DNA of 41,452 nucleotides from a virus. The stretch is from IMG/VR virus record IMGVR_UViG_3300032144_000028, positions 1 to 41,452 of that record. One strand, written 5' to 3'. The notes beneath the pieces are model-generated. The model searched no databases. It saw only the letters and a list, made by a program, of their open reading frames with translations, and was not told the origin of the DNA. Both the position numbers and the translations under genes were made by a program. Shown here in pieces: positions 1-38,828 of this stretch. Within the stretch, counting starts at the first letter, position 1. Every line of letters starts with the position of its first letter.

Positions 1-127
1 GGGCGAGGCCTCGGCCACGCCGGACCTCGACGTCCCCGCGCTGCTCGAGCTGCGCGACGCGACGATCACCGCGGAGCTGGCGAACGGGAAGGTCGCCGTG
101 CTCCGCGACGCCTGGCAGGCCCAGGAG
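1..127. repeat. Terminal overlap, left copy (identical to 41326..41452)
   Basis: Read base by base: 1-127 (gggcgaggcctcggccacgccggacctcgacg...ctggcaggcccaggag) equals 41326-41452 exactly. 127 nt is a typical assembler k-mer length, so this marks a circularly closed contig of 41,325 unique bp. Confidence 0.9.
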
Positions 128-9528: not shown

Positions 9529-10818
9529 ATGTTCCGGATCGACCACCCGACCCGCGCCGCCGCGCTGCCCTCCCCCGACCCGGTCGCGTCCCAGGGCTTC
9601 TTCACCAAGGGCGACCCGACGATGGCGGTGCCCGCCACGCGCGTCACCCAGGACTGGCTCAACGCGGTCCAGGAGGAGCTCGCCAACGCGATCGAGGCGG
9701 AAGGGGTCGTCCTCGACAAGGGGGACCGCAGGCAACTCTCCCGCGCGCTGCAGCGCACCCGAGGGGGTTCAGGTTTCTCCAACCTGATCCAAAACCCGGA
9801 GTTCGACGTGGCCCAGCGCGGCACCACCATCGCGATCAACCCCGGGAACCCTGGCTCCGGCACCTTCGCCCTTCTGCGCGGTCCCGACCGTTGGCGGTAC
9901 CGCCTCGGAGACGCGACGGACGAGGGCACGTGGAGCACCACGATCGACGCGATCAACACCCTCGGCGACGTCCCTAACTCCGGGGCGACCAGCTACGCGA
10001 CGCTGCAGCGCAACGGGACCTCCAGCAGCGGGGTTCGACCCGCCATCGAACAAGCGATCGAGGGTGTCCACCTCCTCTCCGGCGAGCCCGTCGTGTTGGC
10101 CTTCGATTGTCGCAAGCACCAGGTCAGCGATCCGGTTGGCGACATCGAGCTCGTGGAGCTCATTCAGGTCTTCGGACAGACTGGCTCGCCGAGCGCTCCC
10201 GTGACCACGGTCCTATCCTCGCCGCTCACGGGGTACGACGGCACCTGGCGGCGGTTCACCTTCACCGGCGTCCTGCCCTCGATCTCCGGGAAGACGATCA
10301 CCAACGGGCACCACCTTCTCCTCCGGATCCACTTCACCGACCAGACGGCGACGGCGCGGGTCGACGTGACGGGTTTCGTGATGCAGCGAGGCACGATCGA
10401 TCCCGGCTACACGAGCCGCGGGCGCGTTCTGGAGACGCTCCTCTGCTCGCGGTACTTCGAGAGCAGTCGCTACGGCGACGGTGCGGTTCCGACTCTTGCA
10501 TTCACCGCCGGCTGCGAGGAGGTCGGCCTCTGGGACACCGCCTTCGACGGCGCTGGCAAGGTGCGGACCCTTGGTCGGCGATTCCTGGTCCCGAAGTACG
10601 CGCGCAACGCCTCCGTCGTCCTGCCTACGGTCACGTGGCGGGGCACCAACGGGTCGGACGACTTCGTCACGGAAGGTGCCTCGACCCACCACCCCGTGAC
10701 GTCGGCCGACGTGACCTTCGATCACTCCGGGTTCCCGGAGATCACCTCCCCGCCCGCCGGCGGGACGCTGCGCCAGTTCCGGGGTTACTTCTACGCCGAG
10801 GCCGAAATCCTGGCGTGA
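9529..10818 (+). CDS. Tail fibre protein
   Basis: ATG 9529 preceded by AGGAG, 429 aa. N-terminus MFRIDHPTRAAALPSPDPVASQGFFTKGDPTMAVPATRVTQDWLNAVQEELANAIEAEG is the recurrent myophage fibre anchor motif. The C-terminal ~330 aa is unrecognised and visibly less GC-rich. Confidence 0.8.
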   Translation: MFRIDHPTRAAALPSPDPVASQGFFTKGDPTMAVPATRVTQDWLNAVQEELANAIEAEGVVLDKGDRRQLSRALQRTRGGSGFSNLIQNPEFDVAQRGTTIAINPGNPGSGTFALLRGPDRWRYRLGDATDEGTWSTTIDAINTLGDVPNSGATSYATLQRNGTSSSGVRPAIEQAIEGVHLLSGEPVVLAFDCRKHQVSDPVGDIELVELIQVFGQTGSPSAPVTTVLSSPLTGYDGTWRRFTFTGVLPSISGKTITNGHHLLLRIHFTDQTATARVDVTGFVMQRGTIDPGYTSRGRVLETLLCSRYFESSRYGDGAVPTLAFTAGCEEVGLWDTAFDGAGKVRTLGRRFLVPKYARNASVVLPTVTWRGTNGSDDFVTEGASTHHPVTSADVTFDHSGFPEITSPPAGGTLRQFRGYFYAEAEILA

Positions 10819-11153
10819 TGGAGCCCTCGACCTTCGCCCTGCGCGCGCTCGCGCTACTCGCGGTGCTCGTCGGCCTGCTCCAGGCCTTCGGCGTGCTCGC
10901 CTGGTACGCCGGCGCCCGGCTCGTGACGCCCCCCAAGACCTGGCACGTGGTCTCCGTGGCGATCGGCTGGACGCTGATCCAGGTCTTCGCGCTGATCGGA
11001 CTCGCCCGGACCTGGATCGACGTGCCCCTGCCGCCTGGGCTCCGGGCATGCTTCGCGCTAGTCGGCCAGGCCTTCGTGATCTACGGGACCCACCAGCTCT
11101 TCTGGGCCGCCCGCCGGCGTGAGCGGCGCGAGGGTGCAGGAGGATCCGCGTGA
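10818..11153 (+). CDS. Membrane protein, three predicted TM helices, charged C-terminus (class I holin-like topology)
   Basis: ATG 10818 in an ATGA overlap, 111 aa. Hydrophobic segments ALRALALLAVLVGLLQAFGVLAW, VVSVAIGWTLIQVFALIGLA and LRACFALVGQAFVIYG, then a RRRERRE tail. Confidence 0.6.
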   Translation: MEPSTFALRALALLAVLVGLLQAFGVLAWYAGARLVTPPKTWHVVSVAIGWTLIQVFALIGLARTWIDVPLPPGLRACFALVGQAFVIYGTHQLFWAARRRERREGAGGSA

Positions 11154-11443
11154 CCGACCTCGGCCCCTGGATCGCCGTCGCCTCGCTGACGATCTCGCTC
11201 TCGGTGCTCGTCTTCGGGGCGATCCAGTACCGGCGCGTTGCCCGCAAGGACTACGTGGACGAGCTCGAGCGCGAGCTGCGCCGGATCGAGGCCCGCACGA
11301 CGGAGTGCGAGGTCGCCCGAGAAGCCCTGGCCCGGAAGGTGGAGGAGTGCGAAGAGGAGCGGGGGCGCCTGGAGCGGCGCACCTTCGAGCTGCTCTCCGA
11401 GCTCCACCAGCGGCCCAGCGGTCCCACGCAGCCGGCCTTCTAG
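11150..11443 (+). CDS. N-terminally anchored coiled-coil protein (i-spanin-like architecture)
   Basis: GTG 11150 in a GTGA overlap, 97 aa. TM segment WIAVASLTISLSVLVFGAI, then a charged heptad-like region ...DELERELRRIEARTTECEVAREALARKVEECEEERGRLERR... Confidence 0.55.
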   Translation: MTDLGPWIAVASLTISLSVLVFGAIQYRRVARKDYVDELERELRRIEARTTECEVAREALARKVEECEEERGRLERRTFELLSELHQRPSGPTQPAF

Positions 11444-13140: not shown

Positions 13141-13668
13141 TCAGAGGTTCGGCGGGCCCTGAAGCAGGACCTGGACGCTCGTCACGCCGATCCCGGCCGC
13201 GGCCGTCGCGACGCCGATCGTCCGGTTGCCGGCCGAGGTCGTCGTCACCTCGCCGGCGCCGGCGTCCCAGTAGATGCGCTGGTGCAACGTGATCGCGTCC
13301 CCGGAGACCTTGGGCAGGAGGAACGTCCCGCGCACCTGCAGCGTCGCCGGCTGGCCCGTCAGGACCGAGGCCTTCACCACCCCGAAGGCGTCGCCCGAGA
13401 GGAGCCCCTCGCCGGCGGTGAGGTCCGCGGGCGCGGTGAAGACGAGCTCGGTCCCGGCGACGCGAGCCGCGAGGGCGAGGATCGCCGAACGCACCTGGGT
13501 CGCGTCGAGCCTGTCGAGCGCGAGGCCCTCGGCCTCGACCAGGCCAGCGAGCTCCTCCTGCAGGGCGTTGAGCCAGTCGGGCGAGATCACCGTCCCCTGG
13601 ACCCCGGCGAAGGGGTTCCCTCCCACCCAGGTCCCCGCCACGGAGCCGGGGGAGTCGATGCGGAACAT
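13141..13668 (-). CDS. Chimeric protein: tail-fibre N-terminal anchor motif fused to a DUF2190 (head decoration-like) domain
   Basis: 175 aa. N-terminus MFRIDSPGSVAGTW...TVISPDWLNALQEELAGLVEAEGLAL parallels 9529..10818. The C-terminus ...VRGTFLLPKVSGDAITLHQRIYWDAGAGEVTTTSAGNRTIGVATAAAGIGVTSVQVLL parallels 38019..38369 (...KGVVRLPKSTSDAITAGARVFWDNTAKEIRAASAAGRFMIGTAETAQ...). Confidence 0.75.
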   Translation of the reverse strand: MFRIDSPGSVAGTWVGGNPFAGVQGTVISPDWLNALQEELAGLVEAEGLALDRLDATQVRSAILALAARVAGTELVFTAPADLTAGEGLLSGDAFGVVKASVLTGQPATLQVRGTFLLPKVSGDAITLHQRIYWDAGAGEVTTTSAGNRTIGVATAAAGIGVTSVQVLLQGPPNL

Positions 13669-13691: not shown

Positions 13692-14993
13692 ATGCTCAAG
13701 CACCTCTCCCGACTCGTCGCCCTGGTCCTCTGCGCCGTCGCCTGGGGCCAGGAGACCCCCCGCTACTTCGAGGTCCTGATCCCAGAGGGGAGCTCGACCG
13801 GTTTCTCGATCGACGCGAAGAGTCCCCACCAGACCCGGTACTACTCGAGCACGGCCGGACTCGAGCGCGTCGTCGGGCAGAGCCTCGGCGGGATCCCGCC
13901 CGAGCAGCTCGAAGGCGCCCGGGTCGCGGTGCGCGCGAGCCTGCGCGCCCAGGCCGCCCCGGGCTCCTTCTGGCTCGACCGCGGCTTCGACGGGGTGCGC
14001 TTCCGCGGGGCGGGCCTCGACCGCTCCCGCCTCCGGGCGCCGCCGGGCACCGACCAGACGGTGCTGGTCGACCGCCACCAGGGCGCCGTCCTCCTCGAGG
14101 CCGTCACGGTCCACGCCGGGCCGCGCCAGGCGGTCTTCTTCGGCCTCGAGCACAAGGGCGATCCGATCCTCGACCGCTTCGAGCTGCTCATGCGCGACGC
14201 CAAGGTCGTCGCGGACCCCCCGACGGACGGGAACCCCCACTCCACCGTCTGGGGGCTCTTCGCGTACCAGGCGGACGTCACCCTCGAGCGGGTCGAGCTC
14301 GACCTCCTCTTCTCGGCCGAGCACGCCTCCTACTGGCACGGCTTCGCGAAGTACGGCCTGCGGTGGAAGAACGTCAAGGCGCGCGCCGGCGCCGAGGTCT
14401 GCAAGGTCCGGAGCAGCCCCAGCGAGACGGACTGGGTCGCCGGCGCGACGATCGAGCTGCGGGGGTGCCGGATCGAGGACTGGTTCCACCCGGAGAGGTC
14501 CTGGCGCGGCGGGGCCGGGCTCGTGGTCCAGGGTTCGGGCTGCGCTGTGCTGGTCGAGCGCTGCGTCTTCCTCGGCAACGCCGGCAACCGCTCGCGCTGC
14601 ATCATGGTCGACGACTCCGGCGGGGACTTCTTCGGCTACCCCTCGGGCGCGGTGGGCGTCGGGGCCGCCAACGGCCCGGTGGTCGTGCGCGACTCGGGGC
14701 TCTTCGGCGGGCCGGCGCTCGACTCCGGGCTCGCGATCCTGGCCCGGGTCGGCAACTTCGCGGGCTCGTCGCGGCCGTGCGCCCCGCGCGTCCGCTTCTC
14801 CCGCTGCGCCCTGATCGGCGCCGGCGTGCAGCTCCAGCTGGGGGACGTCCCCGCCGGCAAGACCCGCGTGGTCGGCTGCAACACCGAGGCGATCCTCGAG
14901 CTCGTGAAGGGACTCGGGTACCCCTACGAGCCCGAGGGCGTGATCGCGCTCCGGGACCGCCTGGCGAAGATCTCCGAGGGCCTGGTGCGGTAG
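13692..14993 (+). CDS. Secreted protein with signal peptide; possible parallel beta-helix (glycanase-like) fold
   Basis: ATG 13692, 433 aa. N-terminus MLKHLSRLVALVLCAVAWGQETP. The C-terminal half is repetitive and Cys/Gly/Asn-rich (...GCAVLVERCVFLGNAGNRSRCIMVDD...VVVRDSGLFGG...VRFSRCALIGAG...). The fold call is tentative. Confidence 0.6.
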   Translation: MLKHLSRLVALVLCAVAWGQETPRYFEVLIPEGSSTGFSIDAKSPHQTRYYSSTAGLERVVGQSLGGIPPEQLEGARVAVRASLRAQAAPGSFWLDRGFDGVRFRGAGLDRSRLRAPPGTDQTVLVDRHQGAVLLEAVTVHAGPRQAVFFGLEHKGDPILDRFELLMRDAKVVADPPTDGNPHSTVWGLFAYQADVTLERVELDLLFSAEHASYWHGFAKYGLRWKNVKARAGAEVCKVRSSPSETDWVAGATIELRGCRIEDWFHPERSWRGGAGLVVQGSGCAVLVERCVFLGNAGNRSRCIMVDDSGGDFFGYPSGAVGVGAANGPVVVRDSGLFGGPALDSGLAILARVGNFAGSSRPCAPRVRFSRCALIGAGVQLQLGDVPAGKTRVVGCNTEAILELVKGLGYPYEPEGVIALRDRLAKISEGLVR

Positions 14994-15236: not shown

Positions 15237-15727
15237 CCCGCCGGCGGCGGGCTGCTCCCCTTCGGGCGCCGGCGCCGCGCCGGGGCGGGCCCGTCCTCGG
15301 CGTCCTCGTCGGAGGCGAAGGGGAGCGGCGGCTGCACGACCTTGGCGTGCAGGTCGAGCTCGAGCGCTTCCCCGTCGACGGCGGCCAGGAGGAACTCGAG
15401 GAGCTCGCGCGGCTCGCGGACGTCCTCGCGGGCGAGCACGAGCGCGAGCACGACCTTGGGCTTCTCGTCGTCGCCGGTCGGCAGGACGAGCTTCGCCCCG
15501 CGGAGCTTGACGATCCCCTTCCAGGAGGCCTCGCCGTCCTCCCAGGAGAGCTCGACCTCGACGGCCTCGCCGGCGGACGCGGCCGCGAAGGCGAGGACCT
15601 TCGACGGGGTCGGCCCGGAGTAGACGAGGGGGAACGCGACCTGGGTAACGCGAGACTCTCCGCCGGTCGCGGGGAGCGAGAGACTCGCAGACTGCGCCCG
15701 GACGGGCGCTTCGAGGCTGGACACCAT
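15233..15727 (-). CDS. Hypothetical protein
   Basis: 164 aa with balanced composition (K, E, V, L rich), unlike the overlapping + frame ORFs. ATG 15727 has TACGAT 7 nt upstream. Its stop shares the tetranucleotide CTAG with the stop of 15021..15236. Confidence 0.55.
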   Translation of the reverse strand: MVSSLEAPVRAQSASLSLPATGGESRVTQVAFPLVYSGPTPSKVLAFAAASAGEAVEVELSWEDGEASWKGIVKLRGAKLVLPTGDDEKPKVVLALVLAREDVREPRELLEFLLAAVDGEALELDLHAKVVQPPLPFASDEDAEDGPAPARRRRPKGSSPPPAG

Positions 15728-15734
15728 GGGGAGG

Positions 15735-15740
15735 ATCGTA
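15735..15740 (-). promoter_or_regulatory. -10-like hexamer TACGAT, 7 nt upstream of ATG 15727 (leaderless-type start)
   Basis: The minus strand reads ...gcggtTACGATcctccccATG, with no Shine-Dalgarno sequence. Confidence 0.4.
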
Positions 15741-15745
15741 ACCGC

Positions 15746-15773
15746 TTGAACGGGGGGGCGGGGTCCCTATGCT
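15746..15773 (+). promoter_or_regulatory. Sigma70-like promoter candidate TTGAAC-N16-TATGCT
   Basis: TTGAAC at 15746-15751, a 16-nt G-rich spacer, then TATGCT at 15768-15773. It lies 58 nt upstream of ATG 15832, at the head of a + strand gene block that follows a minus-strand gene. Confidence 0.45.
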
Positions 15774-15831
15774 CCTCGGTCGAGCCCCACCCCGTCCCGC
15801 CGACCCTCCCGAGCCCCCACCAGAGACCTCG

Positions 15832-16269
15832 ATGAGCTTCGTCTACCAGCGCCCCAAGGAGCTGCTCGCGACGGCGGCCCTCAACCTGGGCACCGCGGAC
15901 CTGCGCGTCGCCCTGGTGATGACCAACACCACGACGGACACGGAGAAGGCCGCCAACACCTTCGCCGGCTTCACCACGCTCGACGAGTGCGACGGGGCGA
16001 ACTACGCCCGCGTCGACCTCGCCGGCGTGACGACCGTCCGGGACGACGGGAACCTGATCGTCTACCTCGACGCGAACGACGCCGTCTTCACCAACCTGGG
16101 CGCGGGGACGCGGCAGAACCAGGCGGCGCTGCTCCACGTGCACAATGCGACGCCCGGCCTCGAGGTCCCGGTGGCCTTCATCGACACGGGCGGGTTCCCC
16201 TTCGACGGCACCGGCGCGAACAACACGATCCAGTGGGCCGCGCTGGGGATCCTCCAGCTGACCGGCTGA
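15832..16269 (+). CDS. Hypothetical protein (tail-fibre-cluster associated)
   Basis: ATG 15832 (the track ORF starts at 15769 with a Pro-rich extension), 145 aa. ...ADLRVALVMTNTTTDTEKAANTFAGFTTLDECDGANYARVDLAGVTTVRDDGNLIVYLDANDAVFTNLGAGTRQNQAALL... Confidence 0.6.
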   Translation: MSFVYQRPKELLATAALNLGTADLRVALVMTNTTTDTEKAANTFAGFTTLDECDGANYARVDLAGVTTVRDDGNLIVYLDANDAVFTNLGAGTRQNQAALLHVHNATPGLEVPVAFIDTGGFPFDGTGANNTIQWAALGILQLTG

Positions 16270-16295
16270 CGGCCGGCTGAGGGCCGAGGCTCCCC

Positions 16296-18815
16296 GTGGC
16301 GCTCGACTACGGGATGCGGGTCGTCCACTTCCGACCCGGCATCGGCGAGATCTACGAGCGGGACCTGATCTCGGCCCACGCGACGACGCCGGCGACGGCC
16401 GGCACCTTCACGATCACCGTCGACGGGCAGACGACGGCCGGGATCGCCTTCGACGCCCTGCCCTCGGCCGTGCAGTCGGCCCTCGAGGCCCTGAGCAACG
16501 TCGCGCCGGGCGACGTCGCCTGCTCGATGCTCTCCGGCACCGACCTGGGCGACGCCGGCGCGGTCCTGGTGATCGTCTGGGGCGGGGCCTTCGCCGGCGT
16601 CGACCCGGTCGTGACGGCGAACTTCGCGGGGCTCACGGGGAACCCGCACACCTTCGAGGCCCGCCTGCGCCAGGTCATCCGGATCCCCTCCGGCTACGGC
16701 GCCGACAAGACGATCCTCGCCGCTCGCTTTCGCATGGGCGGGGCCGCGGCCCTGGACACGATCGAGGCCACCGCGCGGATGTTCCTCGGCGTCGCGGACG
16801 CGACCAGCCAGTTCTCCCTGAGCTCGTCGGCCGAGGACAACGTCCTCCCCTCTTCCGCGAACGCCGGTTACCAGGTCGACACGGACTCCGTGCTGCGCAC
16901 GCCGACCGGGCACTGCTCCCGGATCGAGTTCGCCACCGGCGACGGTTCGGTCGAGGTCTCCTGGCGCGGGACCCTGCCCAACCTCCGAGCCTCGGTGGCC
17001 CTGTGGTTCGGGGACGACCTCGAGGCCAAGGTGGGCACCGTCGCCGGCTCGTCCACCCAGGACGCCTCCGTCGACTTCGACCCGGACTTCGCGAACGACC
17101 CGGTCCTCGTCGAGGTTTTCTCGGTGGGCCAGGCCTTCTCCGCCAACGGCTCCGGGAACGAGGCCATGATCTCGGCGGGCTCCGCCGGCCGAGCCTCCTC
17201 CACGATCACGAGCTCGTGCTTCGTCGTCTGCGCCGAGCACCAGCAGAGCCCGAGCTCCTCCGGGCTCGTTGGCGTCTCGGGTAGGAGCGCGGTCCGCCTG
17301 ACGAGCAACGGCGGGACGGTCACCCAGGGGGCCGGGCTCGAGGTGACGAAGATGCTCGCCGGGGAGCTCGAGTTCACCACCCGGGACGCGGCCGAGTCGC
17401 TCTCGGCGATGTTCCTCGTCGTGGCTGTCCCCGGCGGGGTGCGCGGGGTCTCGATCGCCGAGACGCAGGCCGTCGGCACGACCGGCGTGAAGAACTTCGA
17501 CTCGGTTGGCTTCCTGCCCATGGCGTGCGGCGTCGCGTCGGGCCGCACGGCCTCCGTTGGGACGGTCGGCTCCGGGCAGGGGAACCTGAGCTACGGCGCC
17601 GCCGACGGGACCTCCCAGGGGTGCTCGGGCTGGCGCGCGCGCGACAACCAGACCTCGAGCACGGAGACGCAGTCGATCACCTCGGAGACCCGCCTGGTCG
17701 ACGTGCTCGACGGGGACGCGGCCCACGACTGGATCGGCGTCTTCGACGGCTTCACCGAGGACGGGTTCGACGTCGACGTCACCGACGCGGCCGGCGGCTC
17801 GCGCGTCGTCTGCTACTGGGCTCTCGAGAAGCTCGTCCGCGTGGACCCCGACCCGGTCGAGCTCGACCTGGTCCTGCCCGCGCCCGCGATCCTGGTCGAG
17901 CTCGACCCGACCCCGGTCGGGCTCCCGCTCGTGCTGCCCGCGCCGGCGCTCCTGGCGACGCTCACGCCGGCGCCGGTCGACCTGGCCCTCGCCCTACCCG
18001 CGCCCCAGCTCCTCTCGACCGAGACGCCCGCGCCGGTGGAGCTGCCCCTGGTCCTGCCGGCGCCGGCGCTGCTCGTCACGCTGACGCCGGCGCCCGTCGA
18101 GCTCGCCCTGGTGCTCCCTGCGCCCGCGCTCCTGGTCGAGCTCGAGCCCGACCCCGTCGACCTGGCGCTCGTCCTCCCCGCGCCGCAGCTCCTCGCGACG
18201 GAGACGCCGGCGCCGATCGAGCTCGAGCTCGTCCTTCCGGCCCCCACGGTGCTCGAGGCCGGCGAGCAGTCGCCCTTCCCCGTCGAGCTCGACCTGGTCC
18301 TGCCGGCGCCGGCGCTGCTCGTCACGCTGACGCCGGCGCCCGTCGAGCTCGCCCTGGTGCTCCCCGCGCCGGCGCTCCTGGTCGAGCTCGAGCCCGACCC
18401 CGTCGACCTGGCGCTCGTCCTCCCGGCCCCGCAGCTCCTCGTCTCGGAGACGCCGGCGCCGGTCGAGCTCGTGCTGGTCCTCCCGGCGCCGACCCTGATC
18501 CTCGCCGAGGCGGAGACCCCCGCCCCGGTCGAGCTCGCGCTCGCGCTCCCCCCGCCGGCGCGCCTGCTCGAGCTCACGCCGGCCGCGGCCGTGCTCTCGC
18601 TGGTGGTCCCCGCGACGCAGGTCCTCGGCGTCCTCACCCCGGCCTCGGTCGAGCTCGCGCTCGTGGTTCCGAGCCCCTTCCTCGGGCGCCGGGTCGGGAT
18701 CGAGCTCGTCGCCGAGGTCCACCGATCCGCCTCGGCGACGGCCGAGACGGCCCGGGACTTGAGCCTCGTCGCGCCGACCCCGCGCGCGCTCGAACTCGCG
18801 GCGTCCCTGGAGTAG
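16296..18815 (+). CDS. Large repeat-containing structural (fibre-like) protein
   Basis: GTG 16296, 839 aa. A ~515-aa Ser/Thr/Gly/Ala-rich globular part is followed by 14 tandem 20-residue repeats (consensus TPAPVELxLVLPAPxLLxxL) and a ~40-aa tail. Confidence 0.75.
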   Translation: MALDYGMRVVHFRPGIGEIYERDLISAHATTPATAGTFTITVDGQTTAGIAFDALPSAVQSALEALSNVAPGDVACSMLSGTDLGDAGAVLVIVWGGAFAGVDPVVTANFAGLTGNPHTFEARLRQVIRIPSGYGADKTILAARFRMGGAAALDTIEATARMFLGVADATSQFSLSSSAEDNVLPSSANAGYQVDTDSVLRTPTGHCSRIEFATGDGSVEVSWRGTLPNLRASVALWFGDDLEAKVGTVAGSSTQDASVDFDPDFANDPVLVEVFSVGQAFSANGSGNEAMISAGSAGRASSTITSSCFVVCAEHQQSPSSSGLVGVSGRSAVRLTSNGGTVTQGAGLEVTKMLAGELEFTTRDAAESLSAMFLVVAVPGGVRGVSIAETQAVGTTGVKNFDSVGFLPMACGVASGRTASVGTVGSGQGNLSYGAADGTSQGCSGWRARDNQTSSTETQSITSETRLVDVLDGDAAHDWIGVFDGFTEDGFDVDVTDAAGGSRVVCYWALEKLVRVDPDPVELDLVLPAPAILVELDPTPVGLPLVLPAPALLATLTPAPVDLALALPAPQLLSTETPAPVELPLVLPAPALLVTLTPAPVELALVLPAPALLVELEPDPVDLALVLPAPQLLATETPAPIELELVLPAPTVLEAGEQSPFPVELDLVLPAPALLVTLTPAPVELALVLPAPALLVELEPDPVDLALVLPAPQLLVSETPAPVELVLVLPAPTLILAEAETPAPVELALALPPPARLLELTPAAAVLSLVVPATQVLGVLTPASVELALVVPSPFLGRRVGIELVAEVHRSASATAETARDLSLVAPTPRALELAASLE
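17844..18695 (+). repeat. In-frame tandem array, 14 units of ~60 bp (20 aa; two units are 22 aa)
   Basis: Units read off the translation: DPDPVELDLVLPAPAILVEL / DPTPVGLPLVLPAPALLATL / TPAPVDLALALPAPQLLSTE / TPAPVELPLVLPAPALLVTL / ... / TPASVELALVVPSPFLGRRV. Confidence 0.85.
18024..18515 (+). repeat. Higher-order duplication: two 246-bp (4-unit) copies
   Basis: 18048-18196 and 18294-18442 are nearly identical at the DNA level (offset 246 bp, a handful of substitutions). The encoded LVLPAPALLVTLTPAPVELALVLPAPALLVELEPDPVDLALVLPAPQLL occurs twice verbatim. Confidence 0.85.
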
Positions 18816-18827
18816 CCTCGGGCCCGC

Positions 18828-19268
18828 GTGAGCTGCAAGCTGCCTCGCCTGGTCCTCGGCTCCCGGAACGCCCGGATCGCGTTCCAGGTGAAGGAGCGGA
18901 ACGCGCAGGGGAAGCTCGTCCCGGTGGACCTGACGGCGGCCGCGACCCCGCCCGGGTACGTGACGGCCTACTTCCGCAAGCCCAGCGGGGCCCTCGTCAT
19001 GGTCCCCTGCGAGGTCGAGTCGCCGGCCTCGAACGGCGTCGCGCGCTACCTGACGGAGCCCGGCTTCCTGGACGAGTTCGGGGACTGGGAGGCCCAGGCG
19101 CACGTGCACCTCGCCGGCGCCCCGGCCCTCGGCTTCGGCCTCTTCGTCTCGGAGGTCGTGCGCTTCGTCGTCGTCGAGCAGCTCCGGCCCTTCTCCCCCG
19201 CGGACGAGCCCTTCCCCGTGGCCGCCACCCTCCTCCCCCTGGCCCTTCCCCAACCCACCGTCTCGTGA
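18828..19268 (+). CDS. Hypothetical tail-associated protein, possibly Ig-like (BppU_N-like) domain
   Basis: GTG 18828, 146 aa. ...IAFQVKERNAQGKLVPVDLTAAATPPGYVTAYFRKPSGALVMVPCEVESPASNGVARYLTEPGFLDEFGDWEAQAHV... Ends with ...EPFPVAATLLPLALPQPTVS*. Confidence 0.5.
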   Translation: MSCKLPRLVLGSRNARIAFQVKERNAQGKLVPVDLTAAATPPGYVTAYFRKPSGALVMVPCEVESPASNGVARYLTEPGFLDEFGDWEAQAHVHLAGAPALGFGLFVSEVVRFVVVEQLRPFSPADEPFPVAATLLPLALPQPTVS

Positions 19269-19651
19269 GAACCACCGCCCTCCTCCTCCTCGCCCTGCTC
19301 GCCGCCTGCGCCGGCCCCTCGAACGGCCTCGTGGCCCACGTCACCTCGAGCGGCGTCGGCGACGCGAGGACCGACGGCGACGTCGTCGTGGTCGTCGGCG
19401 ACGTCTCGGCCGCGCTGGGCGTGCGCACGCTCTCCGGGCTCCCGATCTTCCTCGTGCCCCCGATGCCGCTCGACCGCGCCGAGTGGTACGTGCGCAGCGG
19501 CGAGCGGGGCTACGAGCGCCGCGCCCCGCTCGCCGAGCCCCTGCCCCACTGGGTGCGCCCGCTCTACCTCGACGCCGAGCTCGAGCGCCTGCAGGGGCTC
19601 GGCATCTTCCTCGCCTTCGACCCGCCGCCGCCCCTCGACCCCGAGCAGTGA
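19265..19651 (+). CDS. Lipoprotein
   Basis: GTG 19265 in a GTGA overlap, 128 aa. N-terminus VRTTALLLLALLAACAGPSNG has a hydrophobic core plus the lipobox LAAC. It is the last 128 codons of the long track ORF 17525..19651. Confidence 0.6.
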   Translation: MRTTALLLLALLAACAGPSNGLVAHVTSSGVGDARTDGDVVVVVGDVSAALGVRTLSGLPIFLVPPMPLDRAEWYVRSGERGYERRAPLAEPLPHWVRPLYLDAELERLQGLGIFLAFDPPPPLDPEQ

Positions 19652-19689
19652 TCGGCCGACGCCCCTCCCGAGCCCCTGGAGCTCCTCCC

Positions 19690-20895
19690 ATGGACGTCCT
19701 CATGCTGGCCTGGGACGACGTCTCCCGGGTCGACGCCACCCCCGAGGTCTGCCCGTCCCTGGCCGCGTTCCGCGCGCAGGGCCTCGACCTGCGCCTCGCC
19801 TTCGCCAACCCGGTCTGTTCCCAGTCTCGCGCGGTCGTGACCTTCGGCGCCCAGGGGCGGACGCTGGGGATCCTGCTGGCCATGAACCCCGAGGAGCCGG
19901 ACGGGCCGATCCCGCCGGCCTCCTGGCCGACCCTCCCCGGAGTGCTCGCGGGCGCCGGCTACGCGACGGCGCTGGTCGGGAAGTGGCACCTCGGTCGCGC
20001 GCCGAGCGGCGCCCAGCCAGCCATGGCGCCGATCGAGCGGGGCTACCAGACCTGGCTCGCCGGCACGCTCGCGAACCTGGCGCCGCCCGACCCGCCGCTG
20101 GGCCTCCCGAGCTACCGCCGCTGGCTGCGGCACGACGCGACCGCCGCCGGATGGACGGCGGCCGAGGAGACGAAGTACGCGACCCTCGCCCAGGTCGAAG
20201 AGGCGGAGGCCTGGTGGGTCGCCAACGCCGGCGCCCCGCGCTTTCTCCACGTGTCCCTGAACGAGCCCCATGGGCCCTTCACGCTCGGGATCCCCTCCGA
20301 GCTGCTCGCCGGCTGGCCCGCCCCGACGACCATGTCGAACACGCGCGCGCGCTTCCTGGCGAAGCTCCGCGCCGCCGACGTCGTCCTGGGCCGCCTGCTC
20401 GCGCTCCCCGGCGTCGAGGATGCCCTCGTCTTGCTCTACGCGGACAACGGCACCGCGTCCCACGCGGCCGGGCCGACCGAGGATCCCGAGAAGCTGAAGA
20501 CCACCACCTTCGAGGGCGGGATCCACGTCCCGGCGGCCTCGCGCTACCCCGGCGGCCCGGTCGGCGGCTCCTACGGCCAGCTCGTGCACCTGGTCGACCT
20601 CCCGCGCTTCGTGCTCGAGACCCTCGGCGTCCCGGTCCCCGCCGAGTGGGACGGTGTCACCCAGCCGCCCCGGACGCACGTGATCGCCGAGGCCGAGCTC
20701 GCCGACGGGACGCTCGAGCAGTGCGCGCGCATCGCCGACTGGAAGCTGCGCGCGCGCACCCCGCCCGGGGGCACCAAGCTCGAGGAGCTCTACGACCTCG
20801 CGAACGACCCGAGCGAGGTCTCCCCGGTGCCGCTCGGCCAGGCGAACCCGACGCTGCTCGCCGGGCTGCGCTCGGTGCTCTATCCGGCCCCCTGA
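19690..20895 (+). CDS. Sulfatase-family (alkaline phosphatase superfamily) protein with a non-canonical CSQSR active-site motif
   Basis: ATG 19690, 401 aa. Ordered landmarks: MLAWDD, PVCSQSR (Cys codon 19816-19818), GKWHLG, LNEPHGPF, YADNGT, EGGIHVPA, LVDLPRFVLETLGVP, LYDLANDPSEV. No signal peptide. Confidence 0.75.
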   Translation: MDVLMLAWDDVSRVDATPEVCPSLAAFRAQGLDLRLAFANPVCSQSRAVVTFGAQGRTLGILLAMNPEEPDGPIPPASWPTLPGVLAGAGYATALVGKWHLGRAPSGAQPAMAPIERGYQTWLAGTLANLAPPDPPLGLPSYRRWLRHDATAAGWTAAEETKYATLAQVEEAEAWWVANAGAPRFLHVSLNEPHGPFTLGIPSELLAGWPAPTTMSNTRARFLAKLRAADVVLGRLLALPGVEDALVLLYADNGTASHAAGPTEDPEKLKTTTFEGGIHVPAASRYPGGPVGGSYGQLVHLVDLPRFVLETLGVPVPAEWDGVTQPPRTHVIAEAELADGTLEQCARIADWKLRARTPPGGTKLEELYDLANDPSEVSPVPLGQANPTLLAGLRSVLYPAP

Positions 20896-20910
20896 GGCGG
20901 CGGGGCGCCC

Positions 20911-21384
20911 GTGCAGGGGAACGACGACCTCGACGCCCCGGTCTCCCGGCGCGAGTTCGAGGCGCGCATGGACGCCCTCGCGGCCTCCGTGCACGAGCTC
21001 AAGGACGAGCTCGCCAAGCGCTCCCCGGGCCTCGGGAACGTGCTGACGCTGGTCGCCATGGGGGTCACGGTCGTCGTCACCACGGTCCAGTCCTTCTCGC
21101 GCGTGAACTCCCTCGAGGAGTGGCGCGCCGCCCACGGGCGCTTCTCCGAGGAGAAGGCCGGCGCCCTCGACTCCGCGGTCTCGGACCTCCGCTCACGCCT
21201 GCGGGCCCTCGAGAAGGCCATCGAGGAGCAGGAGATGCAGCACCGCTGGATGGCCGACGTCACCAACCTCCGAGACCAGGAGCTCGAGCGGCTCCTGCGC
21301 CTCAAGCACCCGGAGGTGCCCGCGAGCGACTACTGGCCCCTGGGCGAGATCGGCCGGGCGGTCGGGGCCTCGGGAGGGCAGTGA
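20911..21384 (+). CDS. Membrane protein with central TM helix flanked by coiled-coil segments
   Basis: GTG 20911, 157 aa. ...LGNVLTLVAMGVTVVVTTVQSF... flanked by ...FEARMDALAASVHELKDELAK... and ...LRSRLRALEKAIEEQEMQHR... Confidence 0.55.
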   Translation: MQGNDDLDAPVSRREFEARMDALAASVHELKDELAKRSPGLGNVLTLVAMGVTVVVTTVQSFSRVNSLEEWRAAHGRFSEEKAGALDSAVSDLRSRLRALEKAIEEQEMQHRWMADVTNLRDQELERLLRLKHPEVPASDYWPLGEIGRAVGASGGQ

Positions 21385-21566
21385 AGGGCGTCCGAAAAGC
21401 CCCGGTCGGCTCCAGGTACGAGGTGCGTCTCGTCGAAAGGTGGGGCATGAACAAGCGCCTGCTCTCCCTGCTCGCCCTCGCGGTCCTGGTCGTCTCCGGC
21501 GTCTCCTTCGCGGTCGCGAAGGTGGAAGCCCTGCGCACCCAGGTCGCGACGGCGAACCTGCGGTAG
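21381..21566 (+). CDS. Small membrane-anchored protein (61 aa from GTG 21381, or 39 aa from ATG 21447)
   Basis: GTGA overlap at 21381. The internal ATG 21447 is preceded by GAAAGGTGGGG. ...MNKRLLSLLALAVLVVSGVSFAVAKVEALRTQVATANLR*. Confidence 0.45.
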   Translation: MKGVRKAPVGSRYEVRLVERWGMNKRLLSLLALAVLVVSGVSFAVAKVEALRTQVATANLR

Positions 21567-21713
21567 GATCTTCCTCCCTGATAGCGGGCCCCTCCCGGCG
21601 GTGTGCGTGACCAGCACGAGCGCCCCGCCTCGCGCGGAGGGGTGGCCCTGGTAGTGGGCCTGCATGTGCGAGCGGCGCTCCCGGCGCCGAGATCGGCTGG
21701 CCCGGGGCACCCT

Positions 21714-22490
21714 TCAGGATTCGTGGCGCGAGAGCCAGGCCGGCGGCCAGTGGCGATCGACGACCCGGGCCGTCCAGGCGCGGGGGTGGGACGGGTAGCA
21801 GCGGCGCGCCTCCGCCAGGGCCTCGGCGCGCGTCCGGTAGAGAAAGAACGAGGTGGCCACGTCCAGGGGGTGCGCGCCCCAGCGCCAGCAACCCTCGGTG
21901 TCCTCGGCCACCCCGGCGTCCAGGGCGCGCCGCGCGGCCCGCAGGAACGCCACGGCCTCCTCGGCGTTGTCCCGGTCGTTCCAGCAGGTGGAGCGCCTGG
22001 AGGGGTGCGGGAGGAGCCCCACGAGCTCGCCGCCGGCGAGCCGCGACCAGGAGCAGAAGGGGGCGTCCTCGAGGTCGAAGGCGCGCGCGACCGTGCGCCC
22101 CAGCAGGAGCAGCGGGGCCTCCTCGGCTCGCGCCGCGGACAGGAGCTCCGCCGCCCGCGGCCGGAGGCGATCGTCGGACCAGGGGCGCTCGCTCCAGGGG
22201 ACGTCCTGGAGGTTCCGCAGGGCGTAGCGGGAGCGGCCCTCGGCGCGCCATGGGACGAGGCCCTCGGGCCAGGGCTCGTCCAGGAGGCCCGCCAGGCGCC
22301 GCCCCACGGCCCCGGTGATCGCAAGGCGCGCCATCATGCGCTCGGCCTTGCGGACCCCCAGGCGCGCGCAGGCGGGGAACCAGACGGAGTCGGACGGGCC
22401 CTCACCCACGACGTGGAGCCGGGTCGGCGGTTTTTCCGGGGCGGATTCGGGCACGTGGACAACTCCCCTCGCGCGGCCGGTTCGCGTCAC
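21714..22490 (-). CDS. Uracil-DNA glycosylase-superfamily-like protein (tentative)
   Basis: 258 aa. The motif order resembles family 4/5 UDGs: ...LHVVGEGPSD... (GEGPG position), ...GRRLAGLL..., ...YALRNLQDVP..., ...LLLLGRTVARAF..., ...LLPHPSRRSTCWN... (HPS motif). An alternative GTG start at 22454 has AGGGGAG 8 nt upstream. Confidence 0.45.
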   Translation of the reverse strand: MTRTGRARGVVHVPESAPEKPPTRLHVVGEGPSDSVWFPACARLGVRKAERMMARLAITGAVGRRLAGLLDEPWPEGLVPWRAEGRSRYALRNLQDVPWSERPWSDDRLRPRAAELLSAARAEEAPLLLLGRTVARAFDLEDAPFCSWSRLAGGELVGLLPHPSRRSTCWNDRDNAEEAVAFLRAARRALDAGVAEDTEGCWRWGAHPLDVATSFFLYRTRAEALAEARRCYPSHPRAWTARVVDRHWPPAWLSRHES

Positions 22491-22750
22491 GAACTTGCCA
22501 CACCTAGCAGAAGATGGAATCGGGAACCCTGCCGATGCCGGAGGACGGTCCGGGCGCTCCGGGCCCCCGTCTCGGAACTTACCCCCTTGCGGCCCTGCGG
22601 GACCCGGCTACCCTCGGGCTTCGCTCCGTCGCGACGCGGTCGCGGGCGCGTGCCCTCCCCTCCGGGTCGGCCGCCTCCGCCCCGGGCCGAGGGCGGTCCG
22701 CCCGGCTGGCGCCGGGCGGCCCTCGGTGGCCGTCGTCGTGCCGTTCTGCC

Positions 22751-29421: not shown

Positions 29422-30026
29422 GCGCCGCCCGGACCGCTACCGAGCTGCTCTCCCCCCGGGCCTTCGGCCTGGCCCTGGGAGTCACCCGCCAGGCCGTCAT
29501 GAAGGCCATCGTGGCTGGGCGCCTGCGCGCGAGCCTCTCTCGCTGCGAGCGGACCGGCCGGCACCTCGTCGACCTCGAGCTCGGGCGGCAGGAGTGGCGC
29601 GACTGGACGGACCCGGCCAAGCAGAAGGACCGGGCGGAGCCCGCCCGCGGCGGGAGGCCGAAGAAGGGCGCCGCCGCGACCCCGTCCATGTTCGACCCAG
29701 ACTCCGTGAAGGCCCAGGCCGTGCGCACGACGCTCGCGACGACGCGCACCGAGCAGGTGGCCCTCGACGTCGAGCTCAAGCGCCTGGAGCTGGCCCAGCG
29801 GCAGGGGGCCCTCGTCGACCGGCGCGAGGTGCAGCGCGAGGCCTTCCGGCTGGCGCGCGCCGTGCGCGACCGCCTGCAGGCGATCCCGGACCGCATCGCC
29901 GCCAACCTGGCCGCCCTCGAGAAACCCGGTCAGGTGCACCAGGCCCTGGCCGAGGAGATCGCCCGCGCCCTCGAGACCCTCGGGCGCGAGGAGGAAGGAC
30001 TCGAGGGTCCGAGAGGACGCGCATGA
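29418..30026 (+). CDS. terS: Terminase small subunit (lambda Nu1-like)
   Basis: ATG 29418 in an ATGA overlap (GTG 29412 is also possible), ~202 aa. N-terminal wHTH ...LLSPRAFGLALGVTRQAVMKAIVAGRL... The C-terminus ...VELKRLELAQRQGALVDRREVQREAFRLARAVRDRLQAIPDRIAANL fits the Nu1-type small terminase layout. Lies upstream of the large terminase. Confidence 0.65.
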   Translation: MSAARTATELLSPRAFGLALGVTRQAVMKAIVAGRLRASLSRCERTGRHLVDLELGRQEWRDWTDPAKQKDRAEPARGGRPKKGAAATPSMFDPDSVKAQAVRTTLATTRTEQVALDVELKRLELAQRQGALVDRREVQREAFRLARAVRDRLQAIPDRIAANLAALEKPGQVHQALAEEIARALETLGREEEGLEGPRGRA

Positions 30027-31594
30027 AGAAGCAGGCCAAGAAGAAGCCCGAGGTCCCCGCCACCGAGCTCGGCGTTCAACCTGAGGCGGGACTCCCCCCG
30101 CCCCCGGTGCGCGGTGGGCTGCAGGAGCTCTTCCTGGACGAGCTCCGGCCGTGGCCCGGGAACCGCGACCTCGGCGACCTGGCCGAGCTCGTCGAGAGCG
30201 TCCGCGCCCAGGGCGTGCTCCAGCCGGTCCTCGTCCGCCCGCACCCGGAGGACGCGGCCGCCTACCAGGTCGTGGCCGGGCACCGGCGCGTCGAGGCGGC
30301 GCGCCGCGCGAAGCTCCAGCGCGTGCCGGCGCTCGTGCGCGACCTCGACGACCGCCAGGCCCTCGAGATCCAGCTGGTCGAGAACCTGCAGCGGCGCGAC
30401 CTCCACCCCCTCGAGGAGGCCGAGGGCTACGAGCTGCTCGTCCAAAAGCACGGCCACTCGGCCGAGTCGCTGGCGGCGCGGGTCGGGCGCTCGAAGGCCT
30501 ACGTCTACGCCCGGCTCAAGCTGCTTGACCTCGGGAAGGAGGCCCGCACCGCCTTCCGGGCGGGCAAGGTCGAGGCCTCGGTGGCGCTCCTGCTCGCGCG
30601 CGTCCCCGCCCCCCTGCAGGCCGAGGCCGTCGAGGCGGTCCTCTACTACTGGGGCGAGGACCAGCCCCCCACCTTCCGCGAGGCCTCCGAGGTCCTGCGG
30701 ACCCGGTTCATGCTCCGCCTCGACCAGGCGCCCTTCGACCGGAAGGACGCCGAGCTCGTGCCGGAGGCCGGCGCCTGCGGCCCCTGCCCGCGGCGGACCG
30801 GGAACCAGCCCGACCTCTTCGGGGACGTCGGCAAGGCCGACCACTGCACCGACCCGACGTGCTTCGCGAAGAAGAAGGCGGCCCACTTCGTGCGCCTCGA
30901 GGCCGCGGCCGTCGCCGAGAACCGCAAGGTGTTCACCGGCAAGGCCGCGACGAAGGCCCTGCACGACCCGGCCTGGGTGGACCCCGACGCGGAGCTCGCC
31001 TCGCTCGACTGGAAGAAGCCCCGCCAGGTCCTGAAGAAGAAGCTCCCGCCGGCGGCCGTCGCGATCACGGATCGCGGGGCGAAGGAGCTGGTGTCCAGGA
31101 AGGAGCTCGAGCAGGCGCTCAAGGAGGCCGGCTTCAAGCCCAAGAAGAGGGCCGCGCCGGCGAACCTCGGCGGGGACGACTACGGGAAGAAGCTCCGGGC
31201 CAAGCGGGCCGAGTGCCGGGCGCTGGTCGAGGCCTGCCTCGCGGTGAGCGTCTCGCTGCCGCTGGCCGACGCCGCGGCGATCCTCGCCGACTACGTCCTG
31301 GAGGAGGTCGGTGCCGACGTGAGGAAGCGCCTCCTCTCGGCCGCTGGCGAGCAGGGCCACGACCTGCGCCCGCTGCGCAAGAAGGTCGGCCCGGCCGGGG
31401 AGCTCCGGCTCGCCCTCGAGGCGGTCTTCGAGTCCTCCACCGAAGCCTCCCCATGGGTCTCTGGCTGGGTCCGGCCGGTGCTCGCGCGCGCCATGAAGAC
31501 GCTCGGCGTCGACGCCAAGGCGGTGCTGGCCGCGGCCCGGAAGGCCGCGAAGTCGAAGGACTCGAAGAAGAAGGGCCGCGGTGGGAAGGCCTGA
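30023..31594 (+). CDS. ParB/Srx N-terminal-domain protein with Cys-cluster and long basic C-terminal region
   Basis: ATG 30023 in an ATGA overlap, 523 aa. ParB box region ...VLQPVLVRPHPEDAAAYQVVAGHRRVEAARRAKLQRVPALVRDLDDRQALEIQLVENLQRRDLHPLEEAEGY...GRSKAYVYARLKLL... Then ...EAGACGPCPRRTGNQPDLFGDVGKADHCTDPTCFAKKK... Confidence 0.8.
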   Translation: MKKQAKKKPEVPATELGVQPEAGLPPPPVRGGLQELFLDELRPWPGNRDLGDLAELVESVRAQGVLQPVLVRPHPEDAAAYQVVAGHRRVEAARRAKLQRVPALVRDLDDRQALEIQLVENLQRRDLHPLEEAEGYELLVQKHGHSAESLAARVGRSKAYVYARLKLLDLGKEARTAFRAGKVEASVALLLARVPAPLQAEAVEAVLYYWGEDQPPTFREASEVLRTRFMLRLDQAPFDRKDAELVPEAGACGPCPRRTGNQPDLFGDVGKADHCTDPTCFAKKKAAHFVRLEAAAVAENRKVFTGKAATKALHDPAWVDPDAELASLDWKKPRQVLKKKLPPAAVAITDRGAKELVSRKELEQALKEAGFKPKKRAAPANLGGDDYGKKLRAKRAECRALVEACLAVSVSLPLADAAAILADYVLEEVGADVRKRLLSAAGEQGHDLRPLRKKVGPAGELRLALEAVFESSTEASPWVSGWVRPVLARAMKTLGVDAKAVLAAARKAAKSKDSKKKGRGGKA

Positions 31595-35750: not shown

Positions 35751-35782
35751 ACCCGGGGCCCGGGGCGGGGAGGATCCCGGGC

Positions 35783-38444: not shown

Positions 38445-38828
38445 ATGAGCTGGAGAGACCACGCCGACCTCGCCCAGGAGGTGATCCTGGACGCCTTCGC
38501 CGACCGGGACCCGGCCGGCGTCCTCTCCGTCACCTACGAGCCCGAGGGGGGCGTCGCCCGTCCGATCCGGGCGATCTTCCGCGAGCCCCACGAGGAGCTC
38601 GCCCTCGACCCCCTGCAGGCGCCGGTCTCCATGTGGCGCCCGCGCCTCGGGGTGAAGATCGCGGACCTCCTGCCGGACTGGCCGATCCCGCGCGGCTCGC
38701 GCTTCGTGATCCGACGCCCGCCCGCCGGCGACCCCCGCGACGACGCCTCGGAGGGCCGCTACGAGGTCGTCGACCGCCAGATCGACGGGGAGGGCCTCGT
38801 CGAGCTCTACCTGCGCCTCAAGGACTGA
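38445..38828 (+). CDS. Putative head-tail connector/neck protein
   Basis: ATG 38445, 127 aa. Assigned by position between the head and tail modules. ...RPIRAIFREPHEELALDPLQAPVSMWRPRLGVKIADL...RYEVVDRQIDGEGLVELYLRLKD*. Confidence 0.45.
   Translation: MSWRDHADLAQEVILDAFADRDPAGVLSVTYEPEGGVARPIRAIFREPHEELALDPLQAPVSMWRPRLGVKIADLLPDWPIPRGSRFVIRRPPAGDPRDDASEGRYEVVDRQIDGEGLVELYLRLKD

Follow-up and report, generated by a model that had tools for sequence, protein, structure and literature searches.

What would a tailed phage do with a sulfatase, and would such an enzyme work if the motif from which its catalytic formylglycine is made departs from the one that defines the family? Both questions are raised by g21, a gene at positions 19690–20895 (+ strand) of the IMG/VR virus record IMGVR_UViG_3300032144_000028, which was analysed over its whole length (41,452 nucleotides, positions 1 to 41,452; called the window in the following). 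The gene encodes a protein of 401 amino acids, without a leader and with the fold of the S1 (formylglycine-type) sulfatases, as supported by Pfam, AlphaFold2 (AF2), Foldseek and codon-position GC. Judged from the alignments and from the model, g21 has the fold, the domain organisation and the full set of catalytic and metal-binding residues of an S1 sulfatase; at the second position after the nucleophile Cys (position +2), where the family has Pro or Ala, it has Gln. This departure is conserved in a clade of homologues, and in divergent phages the gene lies beside fibre-like genes. Such phages may strip sulfate from the surface of their hosts.

Fold and catalytic residues of g21

An initial annotation, made from the sequence of the window, had proposed a sulfatase-family protein and named the Pfam family PF00884 (Sulfatase) as the profile to compare it with. 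Against that profile g21 scores 69.8 bits (E 3.3e-19), above the gathering threshold of 25. In a phmmer search of the PDB sequences, 47 entries match, all described by their depositors as sulfatases, with human GALNS the best (6e-17); with a profile of the phage clade, 72 sulfatases of the PDB fall below 1e-10 and the best reaches 1e-37. The AF2 model, computed on a 114-sequence alignment, has a pLDDT of 96.3 and a pTM of 0.94 and shows a sulfatase fold. Its top 50 Foldseek matches in the PDB are all S1 (formylglycine-dependent) sulfatases (TM-scores of 0.72–0.80, E-values down to 7e-24). Among them are ARSB, the carrageenan sulfatases of S1_19, S1_15 and S1_16, sulfatases of mucin and of glycosaminoglycans, the Pseudomonas aeruginosa arylsulfatase (AtsA, or PAS) and ARSA; the TM-scores are 0.77–0.80 with ARSB and with the carrageenan and mucin enzymes. 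No phosphatase, NPP, phosphoethanolamine transferase or phosphonate hydrolase occurs in the top 50, and enzymes of the phosphonate monoester hydrolase (PMH) type are absent from the sequence, profile and fold matches of g21 in the PDB. The best matches are genuine S1 sulfatases, and not the non-sulfatase members of the alkaline phosphatase (AP) superfamily that had been considered as the alternative in the initial annotation.

All ten canonical catalytic and metal-binding residues are present: D9, D10, C43, R47, K98, H100, H194, D252, N253 and K270. The first two metal ligands, D9 and D10 (19714–19719, +), are at the end of strand β-1 (residues 3–8 of the model), are invariant in the clade and align by profile with the canonical DD of 7STT and 6BIA. 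A pairwise phmmer alignment, with the WDD placed on the second, non-liganding Asp, had suggested that the canonical DD is missing; the 114-sequence alignment, the profile alignment and the model overturn that suggestion and identify D9/D10 as the canonical metal-binding pair, with a loop after it that is about five residues shorter. The segment K98-W99-H100 (19981–19989, +) contains the sulfatase-type Lys/His pair of PROSITE PS00149, aligned with K140/H142 of GALNS, and G-Y-A-T-A-L-V-G-K-W-H in g21 fits that signature. In the alignment with GALNS, C43 is at the formylglycine position and R47 at the Arg of the motif; the catalytic H194 (20269–20271, +) aligns with the His of 'THAP', the metal ligands D252-N253 (20443–20448, +) with the D-N of 'SDNG' and the catalytic K270 (20497–20499, +), which precedes T-T-T-F-E-G-G-I-H-V-P, with the Lys of 'GKQTTFEGG'. 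Residues K98, H100, H194 and K270 are the counterparts of K113, H115, H211 and K375 of PAS. All the landmarks from which the family had been recognised in the initial annotation are there: WDD (8–10), PVCSQSR (41–47), GKWHLG (97–102), PHGPF (193–197), ADNGT (251–255), GGIHVP (276–281) and LYDL..DP.E (367–376). Apart from the Pro, no active-site residue is missing and all are invariant in the clade. Their invariance in 34 homologues with an average column identity of 52% indicates purifying selection, and the ten residues are retained in nearly all of 240 relatives.

With the S1 sulfatases of known structure (GALNS 4FDI, ARSB 1FSU, carrageenan S1_19 6PSM, 6B0J/6BIA and GalNAc-6-sulfatase 7STT), g21 shares the two-subdomain fold of the alkaline phosphatase type (TM 0.77–0.80), the ten residues, the PS00149 signature and the C-terminal L-Y-D-L-x-x-D-P-x-E element. 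Unlike them, it has Gln at +2, F for T in L-T-G and no leader, and it is encoded by a tailed phage. Its 401 amino acids are at the lower size limit of the S1 family, and a minimal leaderless enzyme of this kind is possibly a useful scaffold. The nearest solved enzymes (S1_19, S1_16 and GALNS-like) are 20–30% identical, and because identity to any characterised enzyme stays in that range, no SulfAtlas subfamily is assigned. Every testable feature that defines S1, except the Pro/Ala at +2, is found in g21, and sulfatase activity is predicted on these grounds.

The C-S-Q-S-R motif and its clade

The motif C43-S44-Q45-S46-R47 (19816–19830, +) consists of the precursor of the Cys nucleophile, the Gln that stands for Pro/Ala, and the Arg. 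That CSQSR replaces C-x-P-x-R had been noted initially, with the Gln codon at 19822–19824, and the codon read exactly there is CAG (Q45), a single transversion away from CCG (Pro). Among 4058 S1 sequences in SulfAtlas, position +2 is Pro in 87% and Ala in 9%, each other residue occurring in <1%, and the updated signature allows only [PA] (PMC5066984). Residue Q45 fails that pattern as well as PROSITE PS00523. In addition, g21 reads V-T-F-G where the tail of PS00523 wants [LIVMFW](2)-[TAR]-G, with no match.

Homologues were collected by a word-indexed search of 5.8 billion proteins, with a full HMMER pass over 1.84 billion representatives. The word-indexed search gives 34 clusters (37–64% identity, 383–409 amino acids) and then a sharp drop to ordinary cellular sulfatases. 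In the alignment of these 34 homologues, neither C43 nor R47 varies, and conservation of Q45 is 90% or higher. The smallest neighbour-joining clade that holds all 34 clusters has 41 tips, with Gln at +2 in 37, Pro in two (P0022 and P0125), His in one and Leu in one; Cys43 is kept in 41/41 and a leader is absent in 40/41, cellular relatives being mostly leader-bearing. Over 240 single-domain sequences, +2 is Pro in 155, Gln in 42, Ala in 12, Leu in five, Ser in five, Thr in three, Val in three, and His, Ile, Gly or Arg in one each. Gln and the leaderless state co-occur (38/4 vs. 28/153, Fisher p ~1e-20, shared ancestry uncorrected). The Thr of the downstream L-T-G-R element is replaced by Phe/Tyr in 40 of the 42 Gln sequences, a replacement that the Pro-type sister group often shows too. 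The broader sister families, most of which are secreted, vary at +2 (A, S, T, V, L, I).

As far as the alignments go, C-S-Q-S-R is a conserved departure from a family-defining feature and not a one-off. In genomes of 64–74% GC, where a single step would turn its codon into the GC-favoured CCG, the Gln has been retained, and this argues for selection rather than decay.

The Gln could mark a change of chemistry on the same fold, toward a phosphonate monoester, a phosphodiester or another ester, possibly for degrading a host signalling or defence molecule by way of formylglycine or of unmodified Cys. S1-like enzymes are catalytically promiscuous, and PAS variants with phenylphosphonic acid and bromophenol phenylphosphonate are among the fold matches. 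The formylglycine-dependent PMH/phosphodiesterases, such as the PMH of Rhizobium leguminosarum with its formylglycine nucleophile, belong to the same superfamily and share the concept of a Cys-derived nucleophile. They replace the sulfatase K-x-H / D-N residues, whereas g21 keeps K98-x-H100 and D252-N253. The failure of the motif at PS00523 and at the SulfAtlas [PA] position (PMC5066984) is in line with a changed chemistry. On the other side, no structure of the AP superfamily other than sulfatases is found in the top 50 fold matches, and no PADLOC family matches, so that a defence or anti-defence link for the sulfatase region is unsupported. Moreover, the two reversions to Pro within the clade (P0022 and P0125) argue for unchanged chemistry. 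We regard a change of chemistry as unlikely. The three functions suggested in the initial annotation (a desulfating depolymerase, another hydrolase or a binding-only domain) are not separable computationally; the phosphonate-hydrolase option appears less likely, since the sulfatase-type K-x-H and D-N are kept.

Formylglycine maturation

By convention, a Pro or Ala at +2 belongs to the features that define the family and to the 'aldehyde tag' of the maturases; the clade conserves Gln there and keeps all the catalytic residues. The formylglycine-generating enzyme (FGE) acts on C-x-P-x-R and the anaerobic sulfatase-maturating enzyme (anSME) on S-x-P-x-R and C-x-A-x-R (PMC2459300). The sulfatases matured by anSME (C-x-A-x-R or S-x-P-x-R) are thus a precedent for a deviating +2 residue or nucleophile with a different maturase (PMC2459300); they differ from g21 in that Ala is the sole accepted alternative at +2 (PMC5066984), and g21 is not accompanied by a gene for anSME or FGE. 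In the Pfam/PHROG scans, no FGE-sulfatase or radical-SAM domain occurs among the proteins of the window, the gene-poor stretches of the window contain no unannotated open reading frame (ORF) large enough for a maturase, and none of FGE or radical-SAM type is on record in the related loci L001–L007 (loci are numbered with L and proteins with P throughout).

With such a motif, g21 might be a silent protein: the change from Pro to Gln would block formylglycine formation and leave a Ca2+-dependent lectin for sulfated glycans, an adhesin beside the fibres. For the known maturases, Pro at +2 is an established determinant, no maturase is found in the phage, sulfatases that are unmatured or mutated at the Cys do bind substrate (as in the C77S complex 6PSM), and the linkage to fibre-like genes would suit an adhesin. 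A lectin does not need Cys43, which is invariant in 41/41; the general acid/base residues, beyond the ligands of sulfate and metal, are invariant too, and the variable +2 of the sister families suggests that this lineage is matured without a strict requirement for Pro. A binding-only protein is, in our judgement, very unlikely.

If the enzymes of the clade are active, known maturases may accept more than has been believed; alternatively, the clade may provide a natural set of substrates for finding the unidentified third bacterial maturation system that has long been inferred. Separately, STAND NTPases with FGE-like sensor domains have been reported in bacterial defence (PMC13581612); that the change from Pro to Gln is an escape from such sensors is pure speculation.

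Gene start and absence of a leader

The whole window has 74% GC, with long spurious ORFs in each frame. In the frame of g21, third-position GC is 0.93–1.00 along the full span and second-position GC about 0.5. On a second contig, public gene calling made independently yields an identical product of 401 amino acids, with neighbours likewise of 146, 128, 157, 61, 246 and 323 amino acids. The sequence GGAG (19678–19681, +), similar to a ribosome-binding site, is 8 nt 5′ of the ATG. A longer in-frame start, GTG at 19483, is rejected on two counts: the codon-position signal in the added stretch is that of the lipoprotein gene g20, which overlaps it, and the close homologues (34/34) start at the same M-x-D-[VIL]-L-L-V position. 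Nothing like a signal peptide is found upstream of the ATG, including the stretch from GTG 19483. The N-termini of the homologues and this upstream stretch bear out the initial annotation, which had reported no signal peptide. A scan of 15700–22600 found no promoters or terminators and is uninformative at 74% GC.

A leaderless S1 sulfatase has a parallel in AtsA of P. aeruginosa (1HDH), a cytoplasmic Cys-type enzyme with the same catalytic residues and a structural match of g21. It differs in having 536 amino acids, a canonical C-x-P-x-R and a chromosomal gene, whereas g21 is linked to fibre-like genes. PAS belongs to the sulfate-starvation response. By analogy, g21 could be an auxiliary metabolic gene for a cytoplasmic aryl- or alkyl-sulfate esterase that scavenges sulfur or carbon for replication. 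The leaderless state together with the complete catalytic set, and the presence of the P. aeruginosa arylsulfatase among the structural matches, are compatible with such a role. The neighbours, however, are consistently fibre-like and not transport or metabolic genes, a literature search found no link of arylsulfatase with viral auxiliary metabolism, and g21, with its minimal 401 amino acids, is without the large substrate-pocket insertions of AtsA (TM normalised to the 536-residue target, 0.57). We consider a metabolic role improbable.

Linkage with fibre-like genes

No fewer than nine divergent phage contigs have a g18-like gene next to the sulfatase gene, and five of these also have a g8-like gene. 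In the window, g18 (16296–18815, +; BLASTP, PHROG and the tandem-repeat program TRF) encodes 839 amino acids with a small N-terminal domain of the virion-decoration type, a central domain (~126–520) and C-terminal repeats. By BLASTP, the central domain matches the gene adjoining the sulfatase in L001, L003, L004, L006, L088, L091 and L093, and homology reaches L007 by way of L001. The g18-like gene starts 2–16 nt past the sulfatase stop in L001, L003, L006 and L007 and is immediately downstream of the sulfatase in L088, L091 and L093; in the window and in L004, it is two to three small genes upstream. The second gene, g8 (7394–8917, +; 507 amino acids), is placed between the baseplate J-like g7 and the wedge g9, as assigned from their PHROG hits. 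It is paralogous to g18 over residues 257–481 (33.8% over 234 amino acids), has the same C-terminal repeat motif, and has homologues in the sulfatase cassette of L001, L003, L007, L088 and L089. Beyond the sulfatase, g18 and g8, the window shares few genes with the L001-type phages, a g14 homologue being present in L003 only. The initial annotation had placed the gene at the end of a fibre-like block, after a repeat protein (g18), a putative Ig-like protein (g19) and a lipoprotein (g20); the neighbours are as described there, and conservation of the synteny in phages with unrelated backbones strengthens the link to the block.

The N-terminal domain of g18 (~30–77; window 16380–16530) recurs in the 'tail tip cage gp23' (of 9D93) and in a major capsid protein, both from the solved phage entries 9D93 and 9D9W, as well as in tail PHROGs and in proteins that carry Pfam Phage_tube_2; it appears to be a mobile decoration domain of the virion surface. 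A homologue search with g18 recovered only this N-terminal domain of ~80 amino acids. The place of g8 inside the baseplate gene row, and the occurrence of the g18 N-terminal domain in tail PHROGs and in a tail-tip protein of known structure, suggest that both proteins are virion-borne; the cassette has the appearance of a portable group of virion surface proteins accompanied by an enzyme. Inside g18, positions 17853–18664 form a periodic array of 60/120/246 bp (TRF) that encodes P-V-E-L-x-L-V-L-P-A-P repeats; the same motif is present at the C-termini of g8 (~8640–8900), g9 and g19. The repeats may serve as a motif for assembly or attachment, or the array may be a hotspot of recombination.

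The other neighbours are small. The gene g19 (18828–19268, +; 146 amino acids) has no Pfam/PHROG match and is conserved with L004 (62% identity). A predicted lipoprotein of 128 amino acids, with a lipobox L-A-A-C and a Pro-rich C-terminus, is encoded by g20 (19265–19651, +; sequence and public gene call, no family match). On the other side, g22 (20911–21384, +) starts 16 nt downstream of g21 and encodes 157 amino acids with one transmembrane segment (~43–60) and a coiled-coil-like C-terminal half, without a significant family match. An ORF of 61 amino acids with one hydrophobic segment (21381–21566, +; public gene call and codon-position GC) is the last gene of the + strand block. A lysis cassette, with g20 as o-spanin and g22 as i-spanin, was considered and rejected: the two neighbours do not travel with the sulfatase elsewhere, no endolysin is identified and the 61-residue ORF has no lipobox.

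The same surroundings could point to receptor editing inside the cell, where a cytoplasmic enzyme would desulfate precursors of surface glycans or lipids before export. An infected or lysogenic cell would then lose its receptor, with the outcome of superinfection exclusion or of progeny that is not trapped on debris. Receptor-modifying morons are commonly found beside fibre genes, the linkage with genes of the receptor-binding type fits an enzyme specificity matched to the fibres, the signal peptide is missing in 40/41 members of the clade, and the neighbours are a lipoprotein (g20) and a membrane protein (g22). Yet in other phages g20 and g22 do not accompany the sulfatase, the PHROG/Pfam scans identify no lysogeny genes in the window, and late co-expression is suggested by the close coupling to a large gene that looks structural. 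Editing of this kind thus has a low probability.

As a further observation, g14 (13692–14993, +; 433 amino acids) has a signal-peptide-like N-terminus and no family match; in the unrelated L003 a homologue precedes the sulfatase by 1.5 kb, and in L004 one is fused to a baseplate-J-like segment. Searches of the PDB sequences with g8 and g14 gave nothing useful.

A proposed role at the host surface

Our preferred explanation, held tentatively and at somewhat less than an even chance, is that g21 is an active sulfatase that works with the fibre cassette on a sulfated glycan of the host envelope and has unusual maturation requirements. The protein would be made in the cytoplasm of the infected cell, late in infection and alongside the fibre-like proteins. 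A host system able to accept Gln at +2 would convert its Cys43 to formylglycine by oxidation, a host system being proposed because the phage encodes no recognisable maturase. Attached to the virion or set free at lysis, the enzyme would reach the outside and would there hydrolyse sulfate esters on a sulfated envelope glycan (capsule or exopolysaccharide, lipopolysaccharide or glycolipid) of a high-GC, probably diderm host. Desulfation would expose or create the receptor for fibres of the g18/g8 type, or remove a barrier or decoy, and g21 would act as a receptor-modifying enzyme that matches the receptor-binding proteins of the phage.

The proposed logic, a glycan-modifying enzyme beside receptor-binding genes, is shared with the receptor-modifying enzymes of other phages, such as tailspike depolymerases and the O-antigen deacetylases, of which gp63.1 of phage G7C is an example. 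These differ in being glycosidases, lyases or SGNH esterases that are usually fused to a virion anchor, and g21 has none.

Several points weigh against the proposal. In the AF2 model, the 401 residues of g21 form a sulfatase fold throughout, with no recognisable domain for anchoring to the virion. The location in the virion, the host and the sulfated host glycan are assumed, not observed. In the L001-type phages, the cassette is between terminase and recombination genes, with no obvious tail module. For g8, just three homologues are available and the AF2 model (pLDDT 35.5) is unusable. The leaderless sulfatase of L093, also beside a g18-like gene, keeps C-S-P-S-R, so that Gln is not required for the association with fibres. 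Finally, Pro (or Ala) at +2 counts as a key recognition element for FGE and anSME (PMC2459300), and the downstream L-T-G-R element is degenerate too (x-F-G-x); with Gln at +2, efficient formation of formylglycine is not assured.

A bolder version combines the two departures. A dedicated sulfatase in a portable host-recognition cassette, carried by tailed phages of uncultured high-GC bacteria of soil and water, would be the first phage receptor-modifying enzyme of the sulfatase type, and C-S-Q-S-R would report either a third route to formylglycine, next to FGE with its C-x-P-x-R and anSME with its C/S-x-P/A-x-R, or catalysis or binding by unmodified Cys. We hold this to be possible and rather doubtful. 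If the proposed role is true, desulfation would join glycan cleavage and deacetylation among the ways in which phages remodel the host surface, and sulfated envelope glycans would be indicated as phage receptors or barriers in uncultured bacteria of soil and water.

Distribution of phage sulfatases

Proteins of the clade are seen only on metagenomic contigs of at most 48 kb and never in a named isolate, and each of the twelve contexts examined is either phage-like or an IMG/VR contig. Genes for terminase, ERF, YqaJ and HNH occur in L001 and L002, and L003 encodes a giant ParB/LPD38 protein; L004 shares synteny with the window, and L006 and L007 are phage-like too. Four IMG/VR viral contigs have the Gln motif, as C-S-Q-S-R in L088, L089 and L091 and as C-G-Q-S-R in L090. 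In L093 (IMGVR_UViG_3300018079_000030), the C-S-P-S-R sulfatase (9713–11158 of that contig) is directly upstream of the g18-like gene, and in L092 (IMGVR_UViG_3300037264_000545), a related sulfatase (653–1978) has a membrane or signal leader and C-G-P-A-R. The canonical motifs of these two imply that phage sulfatases are not limited to the Gln type.

In the GenBank phages (50,697 records), there is a single match, at 25% identity, from an uncultured faecal phage; no cultured phage in that search has a comparable gene. We did not observe a sulfatase fold from a tailed phage in BFVD, where the only viral sulfatase folds are those of giant viruses (Yasminevirus, Tetraselmis virus 1 and Satyrvirus); these have 13–15% identity to g21, eukaryotic hosts and no relation to the fibre cassettes of tailed phages. 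The literature searches found no phage sulfatase described, and among the papers listed on phage fibres and depolymerases none contains the word sulfatase. These results fit the initial statement that sulfatases of phage tail modules are essentially undescribed, and, within the phage, structure and literature collections searched, the g21 clade is the first described phage lineage of such sulfatases. Among the matches listed from a scan of 185,579 species genomes, relatives have at most 32% identity; the same holds among the matches listed from a control scan of metagenomes, which missed known clade members from JGI metagenomes. The genome scan shares this blind spot, and absence of the clade from cellular genomes cannot be claimed.

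Sulfatase domains also occur in giant proteins, which were considered as polyvalent proteins of phages and set aside, as their signal peptides and canonical motifs give them the look of cellular multi-sulfatases. One protein from outside the window, P0126 (2712 amino acids), contains five sulfatase domains in tandem, of which four have another residue in place of the nucleophile Cys (R-G-A-P-S-R, N-G-F-P-S-R, N-G-A-P-T-R) and the last keeps N-C-S-P-S-R. The domains without Cys are possibly pseudo-enzyme binding modules.

The phage genome

The first 127 bp of the window (1–127) are identical to the last (41326–41452), which indicates a circular assembly of ~41.3 kb and a complete phage genome; the tail-tube gene from 41162 reads across the circular junction. 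The window is the genome of a Mu-like myovirus. By PHROG and Pfam, g34 is a lambda-type large terminase, g35 the portal, g40 the sheath, g2 the tape measure, g3–g7 and g9 baseplate proteins of the Mu gp45/gp46 and J/I types, and g10 a tail fibre; g36 (35747–37960, +; 737 amino acids) is a head-maturation protease fused to the major capsid protein (PHROG 4523). A ParB-N/HTH protein of 523 amino acids, g33 (30023–31594, +), is encoded just ahead of the terminase region. Because genes for terminase, portal, capsid, sheath, tape measure and baseplate share one circular contig with it, g21 is phage-encoded, as had been supposed at the outset. The nearest cultured terminases (44–50% identity) are from phages of Wolbachia, Ralstonia and Rhodobacter and suggest a diderm host.

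A tRNA-Gly(CCC) called by ARAGORN (38465–38543, −) is opposite the well-supported coding region g38 and is probably a false positive in a sequence of 74% GC. The genes at 9529–10818 (+) and 13141–13668 (−) have in common a tail-fibre N-terminus of ~70 amino acids (MFRID..., 42% identity); the shorter one (13141–13668, −) ends in a head-decoration-like domain (PHROG 122). The pair flanks a DUF1064 gene and ~1.3 kb with small ORFs only, and the two could be alternative fibres or the remnant of an invertible or exchangeable segment.

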